Part shown: piece by piece, positions 1 through 10,932 of the stretch
How the letters are laid out: each line of letters starts with the position of its first letter
Numbering within the stretch: the stretch's first letter is position 1
Assembly (NCBI RefSeq): GCF_018420025.1
Contig: NZ_JAEDAM010000033.1
Coordinates: forward strand, 1 to 10,932
Direction: 5' to 3'
Length of the DNA: 10,932 nucleotides
Origin: Candidatus Vampirococcus lugosii
GTDB lineage: Bacteria; Patescibacteriota; Gracilibacteria; Absconditabacterales; Absconditicoccaceae
Notes under the pieces: model-generated
Seen by the model: the letters and a program-made list of their open reading frames with translations, nothing else
Database searches by the model: none
Told to the model about the DNA's origin: nothing
Program-made: the position numbers and the translations under genes

Positions 1-420
1 AAAAGAATAAATATTTTATGATGAATAAATGCTTTAACTATGAAATTTACTTCACTTATAACAGAAAGAAATTGTAATACTGAAACAGTAAAAGAAGTTT
101 TGTATAAAATTAGAAATGAGTACAGAAACTGAAAAAAAATAGTAATTATTTTAGATAATGCTAAATATAATCATGCTAAAGAAGTTCAAATTTTAGCTGA
201 AAAACTGTGAATAAAACTGTGTTATTTACCGCCATATTCACCTAATTTAAATTTAATAGAAAGAGTTTGGAAATTTTTAAAAAAAGTATTAAAAAATACA
301 TATACTCCTAATTTTCTTGATTTTATAGAAAAAATTAAGGCTATTTGCTGAGAATTTAATTTAACTTTTAAGGAAAAATTATCTAGTTTGTTGAATAATA
401 AAATTCAAATAATTAGATAA
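1..420 (+). CDS. IS630-family (DDE_3-type) transposase, C-terminal part; the 5' end lies outside the window
   Basis: Frame 1 is open from base 1 to TAA 418-420 once 5 in-frame TGA are read as Gly. The translation ...ILGGINALT...GKKIVIILDNAKYNHAKEVQILAEKLGIKLCYLPPYSPNLNLIERVWKFLKK... carries the IS630/DDE_3 C-terminal signature (LDNAxxH ... LPPYSPxLNxIExxW). Confidence 0.8.
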
Positions 421-453
421 TTATACTAATATTATTAAATGTTTTTAGTATAA
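421..453. repeat. Inverted repeat or hairpin directly after the transposase stop
   Basis: TTATACTAA (421-429) and TTAGTATAA (445-453) are exact reverse complements separated by a 15-nt loop. This could be a terminator or part of the IS end. Confidence 0.4.
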
Positions 454-487
454 TATACAAGAATTTTTTAATTATTATATAAATTTA

Positions 488-1627
488 TTGGATGAATGAG
501 AAGAAAGAGAATTATATTGAACTAATATATATGCTTATGCATGATTTTATAATATATTAAATTGAGATAATGAGGCTGGAGAAGAGCTTTTGGATAAATG
601 AATGTTAACATTAGATTCACTTTGCCTTGATTACATTTTATATTATTCACAAAATAATGAACAAAAGAAATCGGCATTATATTTTCTTTCTTTAGTTGAG
701 GATACTTGAAATAGTAAATTTGAATTATTAGATTTAATCTATAAATCTGAATGATATGAATGATTAAAATATTTTGCAACAAAAGATGTTGATGAAATTA
801 AATATTTATTTAAATCTAATGAATCATATAAAGAAAGTGAAATTATTTCATACTTGGCATCTGTTGTATATTTATTTAAAGTTATTGTTAATAATATTTT
901 AAATCATAAAGATTTGGATAAAAATAAAAAACTATTTATTGCAGAATTTAGAGTTCTTTATGATAATCTTAAAGATTTATCAATTTTTATATCATATGAT
1001 AAAGATAATCTTAAAATTTGATTAGCAAAAATATGATATATATTTACAATGTCTGTTGACTGATTTGACAAATTATTTCCTGAATTGTTCAAATCTACAA
1101 TTATGGATTATGAAAATAATAAAGAAGAATATACGGATTTGGAAAAAATTAATGAACTTGCAAATTTTGCATTCAAAGATTGATTAATAAAATATCAATA
1201 TGATTTTTGGAAAAATTTGGAAACTTATATAGTTAATTCTAATTATGATGATTTAAATAAACTATATTATTCTATATTTGATAATTATAATGAAAATTTT
1301 TTTATTTCTAGCGAAGAAGAATATATAGATATTAGTGGTATCAAAGTGCAAGAAAGATTATCAGCTTTTATTTCACTTTTTGCAAATAGTTATTTATCAT
1401 TATTAAAATCATATGATTTAGATATTGATCAAAATGTAATTAAAAAAATTTGAGTTATTTTTAATAAACTATGAAAAAATATTGAGTTTAATAAAGCATT
1501 AAGACATAATTGAATTAATATTGATTGAAACTATTTTGATGATAAAGAAATTTTTAGAAGCGAAAAACTTGATGATGATAAATATAAAAATAATTTAAAT
1601 AATAATATCTCATTTTTATTACATTAA
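488..1627 (+). CDS. Hypothetical protein (about 379 aa), acidic and Asn/Tyr/Lys-rich, no recognisable motif
   Basis: Frame 2 is open from 449 to TAA 1625-1627 when about 16 in-frame TGA are read as Gly. It absorbs track ORF 1217-1453. TTG 488 is the first plausible start and ATG 602 is an alternative. No signal peptide or TM segment is seen. Confidence 0.6.
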
Positions 1628-1706
1628 TTTTACTTTTGTTAAAGTAAATGTTTTAAATATTTTTTGATAAATTTTATTCAAAAGTTTTTTATATTCAAAA
1701 AATTAT

Positions 1707-1778
1707 AGTTTCTAAAATAGAATAGAAACTTAAAAATCAAAAAGTTGATTTTGAAATATAAATCATTATTATGATTTA
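1707..1778. repeat. Cluster of three short perfect hairpins in the 290-bp intergenic region
   Basis: The three stems are AGTTTCTA/TAGAAACT (1707-1714 / 1723-1730), AAAATCAA/TTGATTTT (1733-1740 / 1745-1752) and TAAATCAT/ATGATTTA (1759-1766 / 1771-1778). Each stem is 8 bp and AT-rich. Confidence 0.3.
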
Positions 1779-1856
1779 ATACTATTAAATATTTATGTTA
1801 TCTTTTTAATAAGAAATTTGTATTCTAACTTTTTTAAGAAATGTTTAATATAAATA

Positions 1857-1884
1857 TTGATTTTTTTGTTAATAAAATTATAAT
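1857..1884 (+). promoter_or_regulatory. Candidate sigma70-type promoter for the ATPase gene
   Basis: TTGATT (1857-1862), a 16-nt spacer and TATAAT (1879-1884) lie 34 nt upstream of ATG 1918. Such matches are frequent by chance in DNA this AT-rich. Confidence 0.3.
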
Positions 1885-1917
1885 TGCAAAAAATTTTTTA
1901 ATATTTATTTTTGGTTT

Positions 1918-4509
1918 ATGTTAAATAAATTGTTTTTTTATGCTAAGATTTGTTGAGAAAAAATTGCAAATCTTACTAATTCTGAAACACAAAAATCAGA
2001 AAACAAATGATGAGAAGAATTTTTATTTTATCAAATCAAACCTTTCAAAGATGAGGAAAATACTCTTGCTTATTGGCAAGGTTTTTTGGACAGTATACAT
2101 TGAAATAAAGCAAAATTAACTTTTATTGTTGCTTGAAATAGCAAAAATATAAAAATATATGTCAAAATTTCTAATGATTTCAAAGATTTTTTTGAAAATA
2201 ATTTCTATTCATCATTCAAAAATTCTGAATTAATATTAAAAAAAATTAATTTTCCTGATCCTAAATATAATTTAATATTTAAAGATGCAGTATTTCATAC
2301 TAAACAAGATTTTGTAAAAGATTGAATTTATGTAGATCCTATAAATAATTTTTATTCTTTATATTATGATATTTCTGTTTGATTTCAACTTTTTACTTAT
2401 GTTGAATATGATTTTACAGTATCCAAAAAGTCTATATTTATTAATATATTAATCAATATTTTATACTTTATAAAATATGTTTTTATAAAATTATTTTTCC
2501 GACGAAAAGATAAAGAAGATGAAAAAGAAGATAAAGAAAATTTAATAGATAATCAAGAAAAAAAATATTTTGCTAAATTATGATTATCTTTTGCGATATC
2601 ATGAGATTTTAATGAAAAAAATGTTAAAAATATAAAAAAAAATCTAAAATCAATTTTTTGAAATTTATCTAGTTCTTGAGATTTAAAAATTTCAAAAAAT
2701 TATGAAAAATTTAATGTAGATAGTAATTCATTAATAAATTTTTTTCATTTACCAAATTGAGATTTTGAAGTAAAAAATTTGAATTATTTAGAATACAAAA
2801 AACTTTCTTATCCATGAAATATTCCAACTATTGATAATTCTATTAAAAATGATATTACTTTACTTTGAATTACTGATTACAAAAATGATAATATAAAATT
2901 TGGTATTAGAAATGAAGATAAATTTCGTCATGTTTATGTTATCGGTAAAACTTGAATGTGAAAATCAACATTAATTTCAAATATGGCAAGAAGTGATATG
3001 ATTACAAATAAATGACTAGCAGTAATTGATCCTCATTGAGATTTAGTAGAAACTCTTCTTGAACATACTCCTAGTTGGAGAATAAATGATATTGTTCTTT
3101 TTGATGTTGCAGATTACAAATATCCTATTGCTTTCAATATTCTTGAATATAATACTGAAGAAGAAAAAAATTTGGTTGTAAGTGGTGTAGTTGGTACTTT
3201 CAAAAAACTTTATTGAGAATCTTGGGGACCGAGATTAGAATATATATTAAGAAATGTAATACTTTCTTTAGTAGATTATCCTTGAGCAACACTATTACAT
3301 TTGATAAGAATTTTGAAAGATAAAAATTTTAAAGACGAAGTCGTAGAACATCTTACTGATCCTATTGTAATTAAATTTCGAAAAGAAGAATTTGATAAAT
3401 GGAATGATAAATTTAAAGATGAAGCTATAGCTCCTATTGTAAATAAAGTTGGTCAGTTCCTATCTTCTCCTATTATAAGAAATATTTTTGGACAGAGTAA
3501 AACTCAATTAAATATAAGAAAACTTATGGATTCTTGAAAAATAATTCTTATAAATTTAAGTAAATGAAAAATATGAGAAGATAATGCAAGTATGGTAGGT
3601 TCATTTTTGGTTACCAAATTTCAAATAGATGCTATGTCTAGAGCAGATATTAGTTTTAATGAAAGAAGAGAATTTTATTTATATATAGATGAATTTCAAA
3701 ATTTTGCTACAGAAAGTTTTGAAAACATTCTTTCAGAAGCTAGGAAATATAAATTATCTTTAGTAGTCGCCAATCAATATATATCTCAAATAAATGAAAA
3801 AATAAGAAATGCTATATTTGGTAATGTATGAACTATAATTACTTTTAGTTTATGATATGAAGATAGTCAATTAATATCTTCTCAGTTTAAATGATTAGTT
3901 TCTGGAAATGATATAGTATCTCTCCCAAAATTTAAAGCTTATGCCAAAATAATGGTAGATGGTAGTACTACAGATCCTTTTAGTATGTCTAGTTTCCCAC
4001 TACCAGATCCTACAAATTGAGATGAAGTTAAACAAAAAATTATAAAACAATCTCGCCAAAGATATGCTATAGAAAAAGAAAGATTGGAAACTTTAATAAA
4101 AAATTGGTCAGAAAAAAAATTTTCCAAAACTGAAAAAGCAGTACAAAAAGCAAAAGAAATTTCAAAATCTAAAAATAATGAAAGCAAAAATAATAAATCA
4201 GAAAATAATAAATCAGAAAATAATGAAATTAAAAAAACTGAAAATTCTAAATCTTTACAAAATATTGATGATAAAAATACTGTAAAACTTTGAAACTGGT
4301 ATGATTGAATAGTAAAACTTAAATATAATTATTGATTATTTGTAATAGTATGAGATAATGAATGATTACTTCATAAGAAAAAAATTAATGTTCCAGATTG
4401 AGTAAAATGGAAAGATATGTATGATATATCTGATCAAATAAAAGTATATGCTGAAGATTACAAAGAAGTAAATTGAGAAAAAAAAGTAGTATGGACACAA
4501 TTAATTTAA
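1918..4509 (+). CDS. TraD/VirD4/TrwB-type (type IV coupling-protein-like) P-loop ATPase with N-terminal domain, TM helix and C-terminal S1-like OB fold
   Basis: Frame 1 is open from ATG 1918 to TAA 4507-4509 with TGA=Gly. It joins track ORFs 3301-3537, 3592-3831 and 4084-4293. Motifs: Walker A VIGKTGMGKST (core 2944-2970, two Gly encoded by TGA), VIDPHGDL (3028-3042), Walker B region FYLYIDEFQNF (DE at 3688-3693), then LSEARKYKLSLVVANQYISQI...FGNVGT. There is a hydrophobic helix SIFINILINILYFIKYVFIKLFF (2431-2499). The C-terminus GNWYDGIVKLKYNYGLFVIVGDNEGLLHKK...DQIKVYAEDY fits the S1-domain pattern. Confidence 0.85.
4180..4224 (+). repeat. In-frame 15-bp tandem repeat (about 3 units) in the ATPase low-complexity linker
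   Basis: aaatcagaaaataat occurs at 4195-4209 and again at 4210-4224 (both encode KSENN). A degenerate unit gaaagcaaaaataat (ESKNN) precedes them at 4180-4194. Confidence 0.7.
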
Positions 4510-4528
4510 TTTTATTTTAAGTTTAATA
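4365..4528 (+). repeat. Direct repeat copy 1 (164 bp): last 48 codons, stop and 19 nt downstream of the ATPase gene
   Basis: A base-by-base comparison shows 4365-4528 identical to 5010-5173 (offset 645 bp). Identity breaks at 4364/5009 and at 4529/5174. Confidence 0.95.
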
Positions 4529-4590
4529 TATATACTAATAAATACTATCAAATATATGATAGATTTTATTTATAATAAATACAAACACAG

Positions 4591-4917
4591 ATGAACAAAA
4601 AAATAATATTATGAACAATTATTTTATCAGCTACTTGAATTATGACAAGTGCATATGCTAATAATTATGTTTTATGATCAAATAATACAAATGAAATAAT
4701 AAATTTACCAGCTGAAAATGGAAAAATAAATTTACCAGCAGAAATAAATAATAAATTTTGAAGTATCAGGAAAAATTTAAATAAATATAAAATGAAACAA
4801 TTGAAAGAGATTAAAGAACTTGCTAAAAATTGAAATTTTGAATGAGCTAGAGAACTAGCAGAAGAATATTGACTTTGAAATGTTATAAAAAAAATTAAAA
4901 ATTGATATCAAAATTAA
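4591..4917 (+). CDS. Small exported protein (108 aa) of unknown function
   Basis: ATG 4591 to TAA 4915-4917, frame 1, with 9 in-frame TGA read as Gly. The N-terminus MNKKIILGTIILSATGIMTSAYA looks like a signal peptide. There is an internal duplicated INLPAE motif and a helical C-terminus KQLKEIKELAKNGNFEGARELAEEYGLG. Confidence 0.65.
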
Positions 4918-4920
4918 GTT

Positions 4921-4956
4921 AAAAAAATAGAGGAAATTAATTACTCTATTTTTTTA
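4921..4956 (+). terminator. Rho-independent-type terminator, potentially bidirectional
   Basis: AAAAAAATAGAG (4921-4932) is the exact reverse complement of CTCTATTTTTTT (4944-4955), with an 11-nt loop. The 3' arm ends in a 7-T run and the 5' arm begins with a 7-A run. It starts 4 nt after the stop of the small gene. Confidence 0.5.
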
Positions 4957-5154
4957 TAGGAAATATTTTTGGATATAGTAAAACTTATATTTATTAGTCG
5001 CTAATCAATATTACTTCATAAGAAAAAAATTAATGTTCCAGATTGAGTAAAATGGAAAGATATGTATGATATATCTGATCAAATAAAAGTATATGCTGAA
5101 GATTACAAAGAAGTAAATTGAGAAAAAAAAGTAGTATGGACACAATTAATTTAA
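4957..5154 (+). pseudogene. Decayed, internally deleted relic of a second copy of the TraD/VirD4-type ATPase gene
   Basis: taggaaatat (4957-4966) equals 3741-3750. The stretch 4991-5011 matches 3760-3780 (the LVVANQY codons) at 19/21 bases. It then runs straight into the perfect copy of the gene's last 48 codons and stop (5010-5154). The junction shares an AT microhomology, skips about 585 bp of the parent gene and is out of frame. In-frame TAG and TAA codons lie upstream. Confidence 0.5.
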
Positions 5155-5173
5155 TTTTATTTTAAGTTTAATA
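5010..5173 (+). repeat. Direct repeat copy 2 (164 bp), identical to 4365-4528
   Basis: See copy 1. Its last 6 nt (5168-5173) also supply the final sense codon and stop codon of the convergent minus-strand gene. Confidence 0.95.
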
Positions 5174-5935
5174 CGATTCATATTTCAAAGTTCATCATTC
5201 AAAATATATTTCATCTTCATTAATATAATTTGAATAATCCAAATCACTTACAAATCATTTTTTTTCTATAGCTTGCAAAAATGATTCTAAATGATTATAA
5301 GAAGTTCAAGATATATAACTAAAAACTACTTTAATATCATTATTGTCAATATTTTTTATAATTTCAAGTGTATTATCTATTTCCATCATTTCTATCTTAA
5401 AACTAATTTCCAAAGCTTGTTTAATTCATTTTTCTCATTCTAATTTTAAAGTTTCAAATTTATCTTGTGATACTCAATAATTTATTGGTATTTCAATATT
5501 ATATTTATTAAATATAGATTCTATCGCTTGTATATGTTGATATTTAGAATTTGTTATACTCTCAAAAACTTTAATATTATATTTTTCATAAAAATAATTG
5601 TAAAGATCATAAGACAATATTTTTTCAAAATATTGATTCATAAGTTTTTCAGTTTCGTAACTAGATAAAGCTTGTTTTTCTATTGTTTTAATCATAGATT
5701 TAATATTATTTTTTTGATTTTTATTTTGTTTTCAAATATTTTTTGATATTTTTTTATTTTGTTCTCAAATATTTCTTGATAATTGTCTATTTTGTTTTAT
5801 CAAAATTCATCAAGTTTTTTGTATATAATTGTTTTGCTTATTTGGTATTTCTAAATTTGAATAAATTCAGTAACTTGAACTTGTAATTAATATTGTTATA
5901 CTTCCTATAGTTAATAATATTTTTATATTTTTCAT
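5168..5935 (-). CDS. Exported DUF2202 (ferritin-like superfamily) protein, 255 aa
   Basis: The minus-strand ATG is at 5935-5933 and the TAA stop is the complement of 5168-5170. There are 12 in-frame TGA read as Gly, and the CDS extends track ORF 5474-5695. The N-terminus MKNIKILLTIGSITILITSSS is hydrophobic. The core ...LSSYETEKLMNQYFEKILSYDLYNYFYEKYNIKVFESITNSKYQHIQAIESIFNKYNIEIP...KQALEISFKIEMMEIDNTLEII...DIKVVFSYISGTSYNHLESFLQAIEKKG follows the two-half DUF2202 layout. Confidence 0.7.
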
Positions 5936-6036
5936 TTATATAATTTAGTTATTTAAACAGTTTTTTTAATTATTAAATTATAAATATTATAAGATATTAT
6001 CTTAAATTAAAATTAAATATTTTATATAATGAATTA

Positions 6037-6064
6037 TTGAAAAACTTATTTTTTTCTGTATTAT
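6037..6064 (+). promoter_or_regulatory. Candidate promoter for the mod-res operon
   Basis: TTGAAA (6037-6042), a 16-nt spacer and TATTAT (6059-6064) lie 31 nt upstream of ATG 6096. The AT-rich background makes the call weak. Confidence 0.3.
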
Positions 6065-6095
6065 GAAAGCAATTTTTAATTAATATTTTTAAAAT

Positions 6096-7940
6096 ATGTC
6101 AGAAAAAAATATTATAAAAACAAAATGAAGACCTATGCTTCACTGGGAATGAAAAACAGCAAGTTTAAATATTGAATACTACCCTACTCAAGAAAAAGAA
6201 GTTTATTGAAATAAAAAATCAACTGATTTTAATAAAATATTTTGGTGAGATAATTTTCAAGTTTTATCTCATCTTCTCAAAGATTATAAATGAAAAATTG
6301 ATTTAATTTATATAGACCCTCCTTTTGATAGTAAAGCTGATTATGTAAAGAAAGTTAAATTTAAAGGTAAAAAAATTGAAGCTCAAGAACAAAGTATTTT
6401 TGAAGAAAAACAATATGGAGATATATGGTGAAAAGATGAGTATTTACAGTTTATGTATGAAAGACTTTTACTTTTAAGAGAACTTTTAAGTGATACTTGA
6501 AGTATATATCTACACTGTGACCATCATAAATCTCATCATCTAAGATGTATGATGGATGAAGTATTTTGAGAAAATAACTTTAGAAATGAAATTATTTGGA
6601 AATATACTTGATGAACTGATAGTAAGAATTCTTTCTGAAAAAAACACGATAATATATTTTTTTATACAAAAAACTCTGAGTATGATTTTAATATGCAATA
6701 TGAAGATTTTGCTGAAGCTACAATAAAAAGATTTAATAAAATAGATGAAAATTGAAAGAGATATAAAGAAACTTTTAATACTGATTGAAGTTCATATAGA
6801 ACATATATGAAAGAATGATGAAAGAATATGGCTGATACTTGGGCTGATGAAGAAATTATAGAAGAAAATATAGTAGTTAGTAGTCATAATCAAAGTGTAG
6901 ATTACCCAACACAAAAACCTGAAGCTTTGCTTGAGAGAATTATTAAAGCAAGTTCTAATCCTTGAGATTTAGTTTTGGATTGTTTTATGTGAAGCTGAAC
7001 AACTTGTGCAGTAGCTCAAAAGTTATGAAGAAAATGGATATGATGTGATATAAATACTTGAGCTATTCAAACAACAACAAAAAGGTTAAATAAAATTATT
7101 GAAGAACAAAAAGAAAAATATTTGGAAAAGATAAATAATGATGATAATAAAATACTTAATGCAATTATAGAAGCAATTTTAGTTAATTGATGAAAAGCAA
7201 ACTATACAAACGATATTTATCCATATATAAGAGAAAATTACCCTGAAATATATAATAAAGAAATTAACACTTTTAAATGAAGAATAAATGCAACAGTTCA
7301 AAGATATACAAAAGATATGGAATGATACAACTGAAATGAAATATTTATTTCTCATTGAAAATGAATTTGAACTTATAGTTTAAAAAATGAAGTTAATACT
7401 CCTTTATCTTTCAAGGTATATAATGTAAATGAATATAGTGCTTTCAAAAATAAGGATGAGTGAATACAGACTTACAAAGATATACTTCTTGAAGCATATG
7501 GAGTAGAAAGTATAAGATGATTTTTTGATTGAAAAACAAGTAGTAGTTTTGTAAAAATTATAGACCCAAATAGGCTTTTAAGTAAAAAAGATATTGATGA
7601 AGTTTTGAAAAATATTGATGATACACAAGATGAATTTATATCAAATAAAAGCCCTCTAAAATATTATGATGTAGAACTTATATGTTCTTGAAAAGAGCTT
7701 GATATAGAAAACTATATTAAGAAAACCAACAATACACAAATCAAGATAATTGTAAGAGATATATTAATTGAAAAAGAATGACTTATATTCAAAGAAAAGC
7801 CAGAACTTGAGTATGATTATAAAATAAATTGAAAAGAATTGAATATAAATATTATAGATTTTATATCTCCTGTATTATTAAAAAAACTTGATATAGATAA
7901 CAAAAAAACAAGCTGAAAAAACTTTAATAGAACATTTTAA
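6096..7940 (+). CDS. mod: Type III restriction-modification methyltransferase (Mod), beta-class N6/N4 amino-methyltransferase; reading frame ends prematurely
   Basis: ATG 6096, frame 3, open to TAA 7938-7940 with TGA=Gly. Motifs: N-terminal MLHWEGK (6141-6155: cac tgg gaa TGA aaa), motif IV IDLIYIDPPF (DPPF 6315-6326), PTQKPEALLERII, and motif I LVLDCFMGSGTTCAVA (6984-7004, both Gly encoded by TGA). Motif IV before motif I, together with a downstream res gene, is the Type III Mod arrangement. Confidence 0.85.
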
Positions 7941-8148
7941 TCAAGTAATAGATAGCATATCTATTGATATTGATTATGATGGAAATTTATTTAATGCTGA
8001 AATAATAGATAATCCTTGAAAGAATGAAGTAGTAAAATGAAATTATAAATGGGAATACAAAAATAATTGAAAATATACTATAGCAATGAAAATTATAGAT
8101 ATTTTATGAGAAGAATTATTTGTAAGTTTTGATATAAAAATTAAATAA
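7897..8148 (+). pseudogene. mod: C-terminal segment of Mod displaced into the +1 frame (frameshifted continuation of the mod gene)
   Basis: Frame 1 is open from 7897 to TAA 8146-8148 and has no ATG until about 8086. It encodes ...QAEKTLIEHFNQVIDSISIDIDYDGNLFNAEIID...YKWEYKNNGKYTIAMKIIDILGEELFVSFDIKIK. As I recall them, full-length homologues of this methyltransferase class end in this kind of conserved C-terminal module. It overlaps the frame-3 ORF by 44 nt, and that overlap contains an A7 tract and an A6 tract. Confidence 0.6.
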
Positions 8149-8171
8149 TTTAAGAGTTTTTAAAATAAAAT

Positions 8172-10727
8172 ATGAAACAATTTATAGATAAATTAAAAGT
8201 TAAAATTCTTGATTGGAAATTAAATTGATATGAATGAACATATAAAGAAACTCAAAATATTTTGAAATATATAAATAATAATAGATATTTAAGAGAACCT
8301 CAAATTGATGCTTTTGAAACTTATGTATATATAAAAGAAATTCTTTGAAATAAACCTATATGAGAATTAATTTTTGATATTATATGAGATAAAAAGGAGA
8401 TAATAAAAAGCTTATGATTATCTCAAGATGAAATGCTTGATTTAATGATGTCTCCTGAAAAAATGGATGAAAAAATAAAGTCTATTTTATGAGAAAATTC
8501 AAATTCTGATTACTCAAATCAAGTTTATGCTCTTACTATGTGAACTTGAAAAACAGTGTTGATGACAGTTTTTATGTTATATGAGATAGTGCTTTCTTAT
8601 TATCACAGTGAAGATAAAAGATTTGCAAAAAATTTTGTATTTTTCGCACCTGATAAAACAATTATTGAAAGTTTAAAAGAAATTAAGTCATTTGATTACA
8701 ATTTAGTAATACCAAAAGAATATTCAAATAGTTTGTTGCAAATAAAATACCATTATTTAGAAGATACTATAACAAAATTAACTATACCAGAAGGCTCAAA
8801 TTACAATATTATAGTAAGTAATTCTCAAAAAATAATTATTAAGAGTAAAAAGGCAAGTAATGATTTACAAAAACAAATATTTTGAGATGATAAGTCAAAA
8901 GAAAAATCTGAAGTAGAAAATGAGAGATTTACAGCACTTAAAAATCTTGATAATTTATCTATATTTATAGATGAAGCTCATCATAGTTTTTGAAAAACAT
9001 TGGATAATGAAATAAAAAAATTAAAATTTACAATAAATAGAATACACGAAAATAAACCACTTGTAAATTGTATAAATATGACTTGAACACCATATGTTAA
9101 TTGACAACTTATTGAAGATGTTGTTTTTTATTATGGATTAAAAAATTGAATACAAGACTGAATATTAAAACAAGTTGAGGTTATAGAATATTGAGAAGTA
9201 AAATGAGAAGAATTTTTACTAAATGTAATAACTGAATTTTGGCAAAGTTTTTGAGAAAACAAAGTAGAATGAAAACTAGCTAAAATTGCTATATATACAG
9301 CAAGTATTGAAGAATTAAAAGAAGTTAGGAGAACTTTAGAAACAAAAGTATTTAAAAGTTTAAAAATAGATACAAGAAAAATAACTGAAAACCATACTTG
9401 AGCAAGTAAACAAGAAATAGAAGAATTTAAAAATCTTGACACTAAAGAAAGTAAAAAACAATTTATACTTCTTGTATGAAAATGAACTGAATGATGGAAC
9501 TGCAAAAGTTTGTTTGCAACCGCTTTATATAGAAAACCTCCTCAAATATTTACATTACAAGCAACAACGAGATGTTTAAGAGCAATTTGAGATAATAACA
9601 AAAAAGCAAAGATATTCTTATCAAAACAGAATTATAAAATACTTGATAAAGAACTTAAGAAAAATTTTGATATAGAGATATCAGATTTACAAGGTACAAA
9701 AAGAGAATCTCAAGAAATAAATTGTACTATAGAAAAGAGAAAAACTATAAAAATAAAAAAAATTATTAAAGATATAAAGGCTATAAAGAAAAATACTTTT
9801 GATGATTTTATATTAAGTTTCAATAATTATAAATGAAGAGAGATATATAGAAATGTAAAAGAACTTAAATTAGAAAATAATGAAGCTATTTATACTGAAT
9901 GAAAATTAGAAAAAAATAATACAAATATAAATAAAGATTATTCTTATTATGAAATACTTTGAATAATAAATAAATATACTCATATTAATTTTAATATAAT
10001 TAAAAAAATATTTAAAAATAACAAAATAACAAAAGATGAATTAGTAAAAGAAATTAGTAAAGATAATTATAAATTAAATTTTATAATAGATGAGTTAATA
10101 AAAGAATTCTATAATTACGATATTGAAGAAAAAATAGTTGGTGAAGATATGAAAATAATAAAACTTGATGTGAATAAATTTAATTTTGAAGTTTGAGTTG
10201 ATAAAATAGATAGATGACTTGTTTGTTATAAAGAAGATAAAGAAGAAAATAGGCTTTGATTCCATTTAAATCCTTATAATTTTGATAGTACTGATGAAAG
10301 AGAAATTTTTGCACATATTAGAAAAGCATTAAAAGATAATGAAAATGTAAAAGAAATATATTTTACTTGATGAACTGATAAAACAAATTATACAGATTTT
10401 TATTTTGCTTATGAAATTTTTAAGGATTGACAATTATATATTTCAAACTATTTTCCTGATTTATTGGTAGAAATAGAAAATTCTAATTGAAAAACAAAAT
10501 ATATTGTTTTGGAAATAAAATGATGAGATAAAAAATCCGACTATTTAAGTGCAAAACAGAATTATAAAAACTGAGAAAAAATTACTAATGAAGTATTTGC
10601 AAAAGAAATTTGATTTATGAAGTTTAAACAAATAAATAAAGATTTTGAATATAGAATAGTATTTGATTGAAATACACCATCTGAAAAATTAAATACTGAA
10701 AAATATATAAAAAATAATTTAATATAA
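8172..10727 (+). CDS. res: Type III restriction enzyme Res subunit: SF2 DEAH helicase-like ATPase with C-terminal PD-(D/E)xK nuclease, 851 aa
   Basis: ATG 8172 (23 nt after the mod C-terminal stop) to TAA 10725-10727, frame 3, uninterrupted with TGA=Gly. It absorbs track ORF 8556-8885. Motifs: LREPQIDAFE, motif I ALTMGTGKT (8538-8555, Gly encoded by TGA), motif II FIDEAHH (8970-8984), motif III MTGTP, LLVGKGTEGWNC, LQATTRCLR. The C-terminal nuclease motif is YFPDLLVEIE...KYIVLEIKGG (10452-10520). Confidence 0.85.
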
Positions 10728-10895
10728 GTTTTGGCTATTCAAGATTTGGGTGGGTAATTATAAAAGTAGATTCAAACAAGATAAATTTAATTTTCATAAA
10801 CTATATAATGAATAATATTATAATTAGATTAATTTTTACTTGATTTTTTAAAAAATTTAAATAATAATACAGTACATTTATTTAAATAAACTATT

Positions 10896-10932
10896 ATGAT
10901 GAAAAAAATATACTTTTTATTAGTATTAATGT
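10896..10932 (+). CDS. Start of a gene for a probable exported or membrane protein (3' end outside the window)
   Basis: The ATG at 10896 is followed by MMKKIYFLLVLM, a basic-then-hydrophobic signal-peptide-like start. Only 12 codons are visible. Confidence 0.35.
   Translation, partial: MMKKIYFLLVLM

Follow-up and report, generated by a model that had tools for sequence, protein, structure and literature searches.

A Candidatus Vampirococcus lugosii contig in which UGA encodes glycine and CGA most likely encodes tryptophan

The stretch of DNA analysed here (hereafter the window) is a whole contig of 10,932 bp with a GC content of 20.5%. Read with TGA as a sense codon, it carries seven genes, which occupy 9687 of 10,932 nt (88.6%) when counted from their likely starts. 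The genes and the sites referred to below are as follows.

1–420, plus strand: g1, IS630-type DDE transposase cut off by the contig end so that its 3' part is present (Pfam DDE_3, E=1.9e-25, each TGA entered as X); 5 TGA, 0 GGN, stop TAA
449–1627, plus strand: g2, open frame of 392 codons, start uncertain; 16 TGA, 2 GGN, stop TAA
1918–4509, plus strand: g3, VirD4/TraG/DUF87-like P-loop ATPase of 863 aa (Pfam TraG-D_C); 34 TGA, 12 GGN, 8 TGG, 3 CGA
2500–2505, plus strand: pair of CGA codons in g3, FIKLFF-[CGA][CGA]-KDKED, just past a hydrophobic segment in a variable region
2944–2970, plus strand: Walker A motif of g3, GKT[TGA]M[TGA]KST, with TGA at 2953 and 2959
3028–3042, plus strand: DPH[TGA]D in g3, with TGA at 3037
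3379–3381, plus strand: CGA codon of g3 where Trp is invariant, K-F-[CGA]-K-E-E-F-D-K-W
4591–4917, plus strand: g4, small protein of 108 aa; 9 TGA and 1 GGN among its 10 Gly codons
5010–5173, plus strand: exact 164-nt duplicate of 4365–4528, the 3' end of g3
5168–5935, minus strand: g5, DUF2202 (ferritin-like) protein (Pfam DUF2202, E=3.1e-15); 12 TGA, 1 GGN
6096–7940, plus strand: g6, type III restriction-modification Mod subunit (N6/N4 DNA methylase) of 614 aa (Pfam N6_N4_Mtase, E=2.6e-45); 36 TGA, 3 GGN, 6 TGG
6984–7004, plus strand: methyltransferase motif I of g6, FM[TGA]S[TGA]TT, with TGA at 6990 and 6996
8172–10727, plus strand: g7, type III restriction Res subunit (DEAD/DEAH helicase) of 851 aa, homologues with Pfam ResIII; 39 TGA, 4 GGN, 3 TGG
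8538–8555, plus strand: helicase motif I of g7, M[TGA]T[TGA]KT, with TGA at 8541 and 8547

The Mod gene g6 adjoins the SF2 helicase gene g7 on the same strand across a gap of 231 nt, and homologues of g7 are named type III restriction enzyme; the pair thus fits the make-up of a type III restriction-modification system, in which an N6/N4 methylase with DPPY-type and FxGxG motifs stands beside an SF2 helicase. In the PDB, g6 matched EcoP15I Mod (top match), M.MboIIA and CcrM, g1 gave only a weak match to Sleeping Beauty, and nothing usable was found for g3 or g7. Homologues of g3 carry DUF87, TrwB_AAD_bind and S1 domains; the gene is kept across Patescibacteria, with relatives encoded at 598 genome loci. 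A Pfam search with g2 returned no family match, and an Rfam scan of the window returned no match. The hydrophobic N-terminus of g4 looks, by eye, like a signal peptide, and the gene contains a 27-nt tandem repeat at 4689–4758. Two shorter g3-like fragments stand before the copy at 5010–5173, an observation outside the question of the code.

The proteins of g6 and g7 were identical to NCBI Candidatus Vampirococcus lugosii proteins P0001 and P0241, respectively, at every non-TGA codon. NCBI places this organism in the phylum Absconditibacteriota, and the two matches put the window within Absconditabacteria/Gracilibacteria (GTDB class JAEDAM01). The window is therefore a chromosomal contig of V. 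lugosii (Absconditabacteria/SR1), a published predatory bacterium; the original prediction, made from the sequence without database searches, had named the right lineage.

Under the standard code (table 11), the longest ORF was 124 aa (9131–9505, minus strand) and no gene was intact. With TGA as sense, open frames appeared at 1–420, 449–1627, 1876/1918–4509, 4579/4591–4917, 5168–5935 (minus strand), 6093/6096–7940 and 8169/8172–10727. The seven genes hold 151 in-frame TGA codons among 3242 sense codons, with 0 internal TAA or TAG, and all seven terminate with TAA. Taken whole, the six reading frames contain 147–205 TAA each, so the absence of TAA and TAG inside the genes is not due to chance. 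The original prediction had described just such a layout (no intact standard-code gene, TGA-sense frames over about 90% of the window and free of TAA and TAG, TAA as the only true stop), and it was reproduced here; its coordinates for the four motifs were exact, as was its count of TGA among the glycine codons of g4. Treating TAG rather than TAA or TGA as sense brought nearly no gain in open frames. Treating TAA as sense yielded only frames of ≤282 codons that overlapped one another across frames and strands, in contrast to the 392–877 codons obtained with TGA as sense.

The residue encoded by TGA was read from homologue columns. For g6, 91 homologues with normal Trp content showed G 1625 times and W twice opposite TGA. 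Both TGA columns of its motif I were G in 91/91 homologues, M.MboIIA having FMGSGTT and CcrM FFGVGTT at this place, and these two PDB proteins and EcoP15I Mod have G opposite g6 TGA. For g7, 114 reference homologues showed G 2371 times opposite TGA; the motif I columns were G in 114/114 and 113/114, with an archaeal Methanoculleus protein among the references. The g3 reference set consisted of 70 standard-code Patescibacteria loci read from DNA. The tblastn ranking of g3 relatives favoured such standard-code genomes, which therefore served as a non-circular reference, and among the genome contigs with g3 relatives no other V. lugosii contig was returned. Opposite TGA in the g3 core, G was found in 681/981 cells and W in 0; the two Walker A columns and the DPH[TGA]D column were each G in 70/70 loci, and D371, P372, H373 and G374 were invariant in alignment A1. 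Comparison of g5 with the PDB structure of MJ0754 gave G opposite 2 of 4 aligned TGA codons.

When all codons were tallied over 1192 conserved columns, 53/67 columns with TGA had G and 10/10 columns with TGG had W. The remaining codons were standard except CGA (W in 1/1) and the rare ATC and GTG, whose 2–3 columns each reflect Ile/Val interchange. About a fifth of TGA codons fell in non-Gly columns, a share equal to that of ordinary sense codons (for example, GAT corresponded to D in 53/68). TGA accounts for 151 of the 174 Gly codons (87%) and is the main Gly codon of the window, GGN making up 23 of the 3249 codons of all seven genes; the Gly content per gene from TGA and GGN together is 3.6–9.2%. 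As the original prediction had expected, the residues opposite TGA were overwhelmingly Gly and essentially never Trp, and TGG serves as Trp, for example at 6144 within HWE[TGA]K (6141–6155). On these sequence comparisons, UGA = Gly is supported by every test run, with nothing of substance against it. UGG is still Trp, and UAA is the stop of all seven genes. The assignment is correct and already known, as the original prediction had also said: Moreira et al. 2021 (PMC8080830) give UGA = Gly for the V. lugosii genome, on which Prodigal was run with table 25. Textbook knowledge for the phylum and stated in the genome's own paper, it has correct annotation as its sole consequence.

Two other readings of TGA were weighed against glycine. 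If TGA were a true stop, the window would be a field of pseudogenes or would depend on programmed read-through or selenocysteine, which would fit the lack of any intact gene under table 11. Pseudogenes, however, would gather all three stop codons and frameshifts, whereas the stop codons here are wholly asymmetric, with zero in-frame TAA or TAG, and the TGA codons fall precisely on invariant catalytic glycines; this rules the reading out, and we give it practically no chance. Scarcely more credible is TGA = Trp, as in NCBI table 4, which is used by Mycoplasmatales, Entomoplasmatales and some endosymbionts. Table 4 also concerns a reassigned UGA stop in an AT-rich reduced genome, as known from low-GC Mycoplasmatales and several insect endosymbionts, the two tables are often mixed up by gene callers, and the very low GC content would suit it. 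Several database pipelines have in fact translated these genes in this way: P0121 is the g3 of the window with W at all 34 TGA codons, and W-rich sequences made up 28/119 matches for g6 and 52/119 for g3. Against it, the amino acid in the window is Gly and not Trp; the near absence of W opposite TGA in g6 and g3 and the G of the standard-code columns refute it, and TGG already fills every conserved Trp column tested. It would also leave the genes with an implausible composition: 4.3–8.3% Trp in each, and some 0.7% Gly over all of them. Table-4 translations are common in large protein databases, as the 34 spurious Trp residues of this ATPase illustrate, and such entries can mislead code inference unless standard-code references are kept apart.

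With UGA read as Gly, one codon of the window still seemed to depart from table 25. Arg-type codons were dominated by AGA (62 of 3249 codons), with three CGA and no CGG; low GC, rare CGA/CGG and AGA as the dominant Arg codon thus occur together here. Two of the CGA codons, at 2500 and 2503, belong to a variable part of g3. The informative one, at 3379, occupies a column in which 70/70 standard-code loci have TGG (Trp). At the same column, four relatives (L004, L006, L007 and L008) have CGA or CGG and three (L001–L003) have CGA; in the three closest relatives, which have CGA at this site, AGA is the dominant Arg codon. We then counted codons over ten TGA-recoded genomes (the window and nine relatives). 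Their conserved Trp columns contained 17 CGA, 1 CGG and 12 TGG (CGA/CGG in 18/30 cells), whereas their conserved Arg columns contained CGA/CGG in 0/146 cells and AGA, AGG, CGT and CGC instead (Fisher p = 5e-17, the cells being phylogenetically non-independent). Wherever a recoded relative had an "Arg" codon at a conserved Trp column, it was always one of CGA and CGG; AGA and AGG never took that place. The Arg codons of the window itself behaved normally in conserved columns (AGA corresponded to R in 21/25, AGG in 4/5, CGT in 1/1 and CGC in 1/1). The same change had been predicted for the phylum: Shulgina and Eddy 2021 (PMC8629427) predicted CGA and CGG as Trp in Absconditabacteria, a prediction restated in PMC13092985. 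Judged from these codon columns, CGA is most likely read as Trp and not Arg in V. lugosii, and the same most likely holds by inference for CGG, a codon absent from the window. This would most likely be a second known change of the code, missed by table 25 and by the public annotation.

The contrary reading is that table 25 is complete, that CGA means Arg, and that the codon at 3379 records a true Trp-to-Arg substitution inherited within a subclade. It can point to the single informative CGA codon of the window, to the one-base distance between some R and W codons, and to its use in the published annotation. It is unlikely nonetheless, since it must set a substitution against a column of TGG throughout the standard-code genomes, and it leaves unexplained why the "Arg" codons at Trp columns are always CGA/CGG although AGA dominates Arg usage, and why CGA/CGG are missing from the conserved Arg cells; the genome-scale prediction for the phylum is independent of these counts and also speaks for Trp. 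Table 25 is thus probably not the whole code of V. lugosii. The original prediction of translation table 25 holds for UGA = Gly and, as a statement of the full code, is probably incomplete, as CGA appears to be Trp. One further locus, L076, has a single in-frame TGA and yet carries CGA/CGG at Arg columns, which indicates that the UGA and CGA/CGG reassignments are not universally coupled.

Taken together, it is highly probable that the code of V. lugosii is NCBI table 25 (UGA = Gly, UAA stop, UGG Trp) with CGA/CGG = Trp added, and quite likely that the organism reads CGA (and CGG) as Trp alongside UGA as Gly, a combination that no NCBI table lists. The table 25 code, with UGA as Gly, was reportedly described by Rinke and colleagues in 2013. 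The window shares with it UGA = Gly, UGG = Trp, UAA as stop, low GC and membership of Absconditabacteria, and the source genome was published with it. It differs in the behaviour of CGA, which acts as a Trp codon in the window but, like CGG, stands for Arg in table 25, and in that UGA is no minor extra codon here but supplies most Gly codons. The code predicted with Codetta for Absconditabacteria (Shulgina and Eddy 2021) shares with the window the phylum, the scarcity of CGA/CGG, the preference for AGA among Arg codons and the placing of CGA at conserved Trp positions; the support from the window differs from it in consisting of one codon plus relatives, with no CGG, whereas that study also used tRNA evidence.

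From the literature, UGA would be read by a tRNA-Gly with anticodon UCA following loss of release factor 2, and CGA/CGG by Trp-charged tRNA(UCG)/tRNA(CCG), expected to carry Trp identity elements (G73, no A20). A search for tRNA(UCA) and tRNA(UCG) gave no tRNA gene, neither in the window nor in the loci of the nine TGA-recoded relatives (L001–L008 and L010). Extreme AT pressure, also as suggested in the literature, may aid such a change by making codons rare before their capture.

The second change bears on existing data. Table 25 would mistranslate this lineage at CGA/CGG, so that publicly available protein sequences show Arg for conserved Trp, with effects on alignments, structure predictions and proteomics searches. 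If the reading is true, the published table-25 proteome of V. lugosii has Arg in place of Trp at each CGA/CGG, for example at residue 488 of the VirD4-like ATPase, and the Codetta prediction for Absconditabacteria extends to the best-characterised predatory member of the phylum.

The window has a GC content of 20.5% (10,932 nt), and under the standard bacterial code its longest ORF is only 124 aa (9131–9505, minus strand). When TGA was read as sense, seven long frames (g1 to g7) appeared. Their families were assigned with TGA masked as X, so that the family calls are independent of any hypothesis on TGA:

1–420: g1, a DDE_3/IS630-type transposase gene, fragment cut by the contig end
449–1627: g2, a gene without a family match
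1918–4509: g3, a VirD4/TraG/DUF87-like ATPase
4591–4917: g4, a small protein with a hydrophobic N-terminus
5168–5935, minus strand: g5, a DUF2202 protein
6096–7940: g6, an N6/N4 DNA methylase
8172–10727: g7, a type III Res helicase

The seven genes occupy 88.6% of the window and contain 151 TGA codons, with neither TAA nor TAG inside them, and every one terminates in TAA. Because 147 to 205 TAA codons occur per whole reading frame in all six frames of the window, the asymmetry between TGA and TAA/TAG is explained neither by chance nor by gene decay. The motif and codon coordinates in the original prediction were all exact.

The meaning of TGA was examined by tabulating the homologue residues opposite each TGA codon of g6, g7 and g3. 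For g6, 91 homologues of normal Trp content were compared: opposite the 36 TGA codons they carried Gly 1,625 times and Trp twice, and both glycine columns of the FxGxG motif were Gly in 91/91. M.MboIIA, CcrM and EcoP15I Mod, which have solved structures and come from standard-code organisms, also carry Gly at the corresponding sites. The TGA columns of g7 showed Gly 2,371 times among its homologues, including 114/114 and 113/114 in the motif I columns, where an archaeal Methanoculleus protein was among those compared. Most g3 homologues in protein databases come from the same recoded lineage and would be circular as evidence; therefore, genomic DNA was fetched from 80 relatives, and the 70 whose core region lacked an in-frame stop were kept as the reference set. 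In these standard-code loci, Gly filled 681 of the 981 non-gap cells opposite g3 TGA codons and Trp none, and the Walker A, DPHGD and six further TGA columns were Gly in all 70.

A tally of all codons over 1,192 conserved columns matched TGA to Gly in 53 of 67, a rate equal to that of ordinary sense codons, and TGG to Trp in 10 of 10. Composition was in accord with these findings: TGA plus GGN gives 3.6–9.2% Gly per gene, whereas reading TGA as Trp gives 4.3–8.3% Trp per gene and leaves Gly at about 0.7% overall. The alternative that TGA encodes Trp is refuted by this composition and by the presence of Gly, not Trp, in the homologue columns. Together, the columns, the tally and the composition establish TGA as Gly in the window as firmly as sequence comparison permits. 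This supports the original prediction on TGA, as well as its statement that TGG still encodes Trp.

Among the Gly codons of the seven genes, TGA was dominant (151 versus 23 GGN, 87%), with GGC found once and GGG never. The TGA share in g3 homologues of relatives rose with falling GC, from 28 TGA versus 19 GGN in L003 (GC 0.30) through 34 versus 15 in L001 (GC 0.25) to 40 versus 4 in L002 (GC 0.23).

The best matches of g6 and g7 were NCBI proteins of Candidatus Vampirococcus lugosii (phylum Absconditibacteriota in NCBI), identical at all non-TGA codons and with Gly at every TGA. The genome paper (Moreira et al. 2021, PMC8080830) reported that UGA codes for glycine, a reassignment shared with other Absconditabacteria, that genes were called by Prodigal with table 25, and that the defence systems include one type III restriction enzyme. 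This analysis confirms the observation. UGA as Gly had been published earlier for the same genome, in line with the remark in the original prediction that the code is not new.

The all-codon tally also revealed that the CGA at 3379 (g3 residue 488, context K-F-[CGA]-K-E-E-F-D-K-W) falls in a Trp column, which is TGG in 70/70 standard-code genomes. The other departures, ATC and GTG, were rare (2–3 conserved columns each) and represent ordinary Ile/Val interchange. CGA also occupies the equivalent site in the three closest relatives, L001–L003 (62–64% protein identity, GC 23–30%), in which the dominant Arg codon is AGA. We then compared ten recoded genomes with in-frame TGA (the window, L001–L008 and L010) at three columns with Trp in 90% or more of standard-code genomes and at fifteen conserved Arg columns. 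In the Trp columns, 17 codons were CGA, 12 were TGG and one was CGG, whereas CGA/CGG occurred in 0 of 146 cells of the Arg columns, which used AGA, AGG, CGT and CGC instead (Fisher p = 5e-17, the cells being phylogenetically non-independent).

A reassignment of CGA/CGG to Trp, in addition to UGA as Gly, has been predicted for Absconditabacteria (Shulgina and Eddy 2021, PMC8629427), and the pattern above is its signature. That paper attributed the change to the absence of tRNA-Arg(ACG) from the Candidate Phyla Radiation, with decoding by tRNA(UCG)/tRNA(CCG); the prediction is repeated in PMC13092985. CGA/CGG as Trp has thus already been put forward in print for this phylum. The column pattern indicates that table 25, as originally assigned, is very probably incomplete for the window: its UGA-to-Gly part agrees with the homologue columns, but it would misread the CGA in the Trp column at 3379, and the full code would be table 25 plus CGA(/CGG) as Trp. 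The window's own evidence is thin: it contributes one informative codon, it has no CGG, and its other two CGAs (2500 and 2503) fall within a variable segment. Any annotation by table 25 must place Arg at all three CGA codons, including at one or more positions of invariant Trp.

What the codons mean is shown here by comparison with homologues; for the machinery, we infer from the cited literature that UGA would be read as Gly through tRNA-Gly(UCA) and loss of RF2, and CGA/CGG as Trp through a Trp-type tRNA(UCG/CCG). A scan found no tRNA genes in the window or in the loci of the nine recoded relatives.

Many public protein entries of this lineage (Logan, ENA, JGI) are code-25 genes rendered with table 4, in which UGA is Trp. 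Such entries occur among the matches P0121, P0002–P0040 and P0242–P0245; P0121 is g3 itself, with Trp at 34/34 TGA codons. Trp exceeded 2.5% in 28/119 g6 matches and 52/119 g3 matches, the W residues falling at sites of G in standard-code homologues. In five loci labelled 'Candidatus Peribacteria' (L004, L005, L006, L008 and L010), Gly columns contain in-frame TGA and conserved Trp columns contain CGA; these genomes therefore use the recoded code, and the label is probably wrong. Another locus, L076, has a single in-frame TGA, yet carries CGA/CGG at Arg columns.

In the closest relatives, L001–L003, the g3 homologue lies among the core genes dnaG, aspS, nusA and gatB, whereas in the window its neighbours are the transposase fragment, the gene without a family and the type III R-M pair. 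The difference suggests local rearrangement. An exact 164-nt direct repeat occurs at 4365–4528 (the final 145 nt of g3 and the 19 nt that follow) and at 5010–5173, with g4 on one side and the 3' end of g5 on the other. Immediately upstream of this second copy, 4954–4985 resembles g3 3473–3504 (91%) and 4985–5009 resembles g3 3754–3778 (88%), the two stretches keeping their g3 order. The 4954–5173 segment is a remnant of a second g3 copy that has lost internal parts, or else a chimera, the latter being considered because whole-genome-amplified DNA was used for the genome assembly. Three in-frame tandem repeats were also present:

4165–4243: g3, period 15 nt, a KSENN run in a linker
4689–4758: g4, period 27 nt, INLPAE-type
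5702–5796: g5, period 33 nt, encoding repeats of type SRNIGEQNKKISKNIGKQNK

In g6, the 7111–7440 segment (residues about 340–450), which contains 8 of the 36 TGA codons of the gene, forms a stretch of roughly 100 residues that faces gaps in 91/91 reference homologues and is shared only with one W-rich relative, P0002. It may be an insertion specific to the lineage, placed in the target-recognition region.
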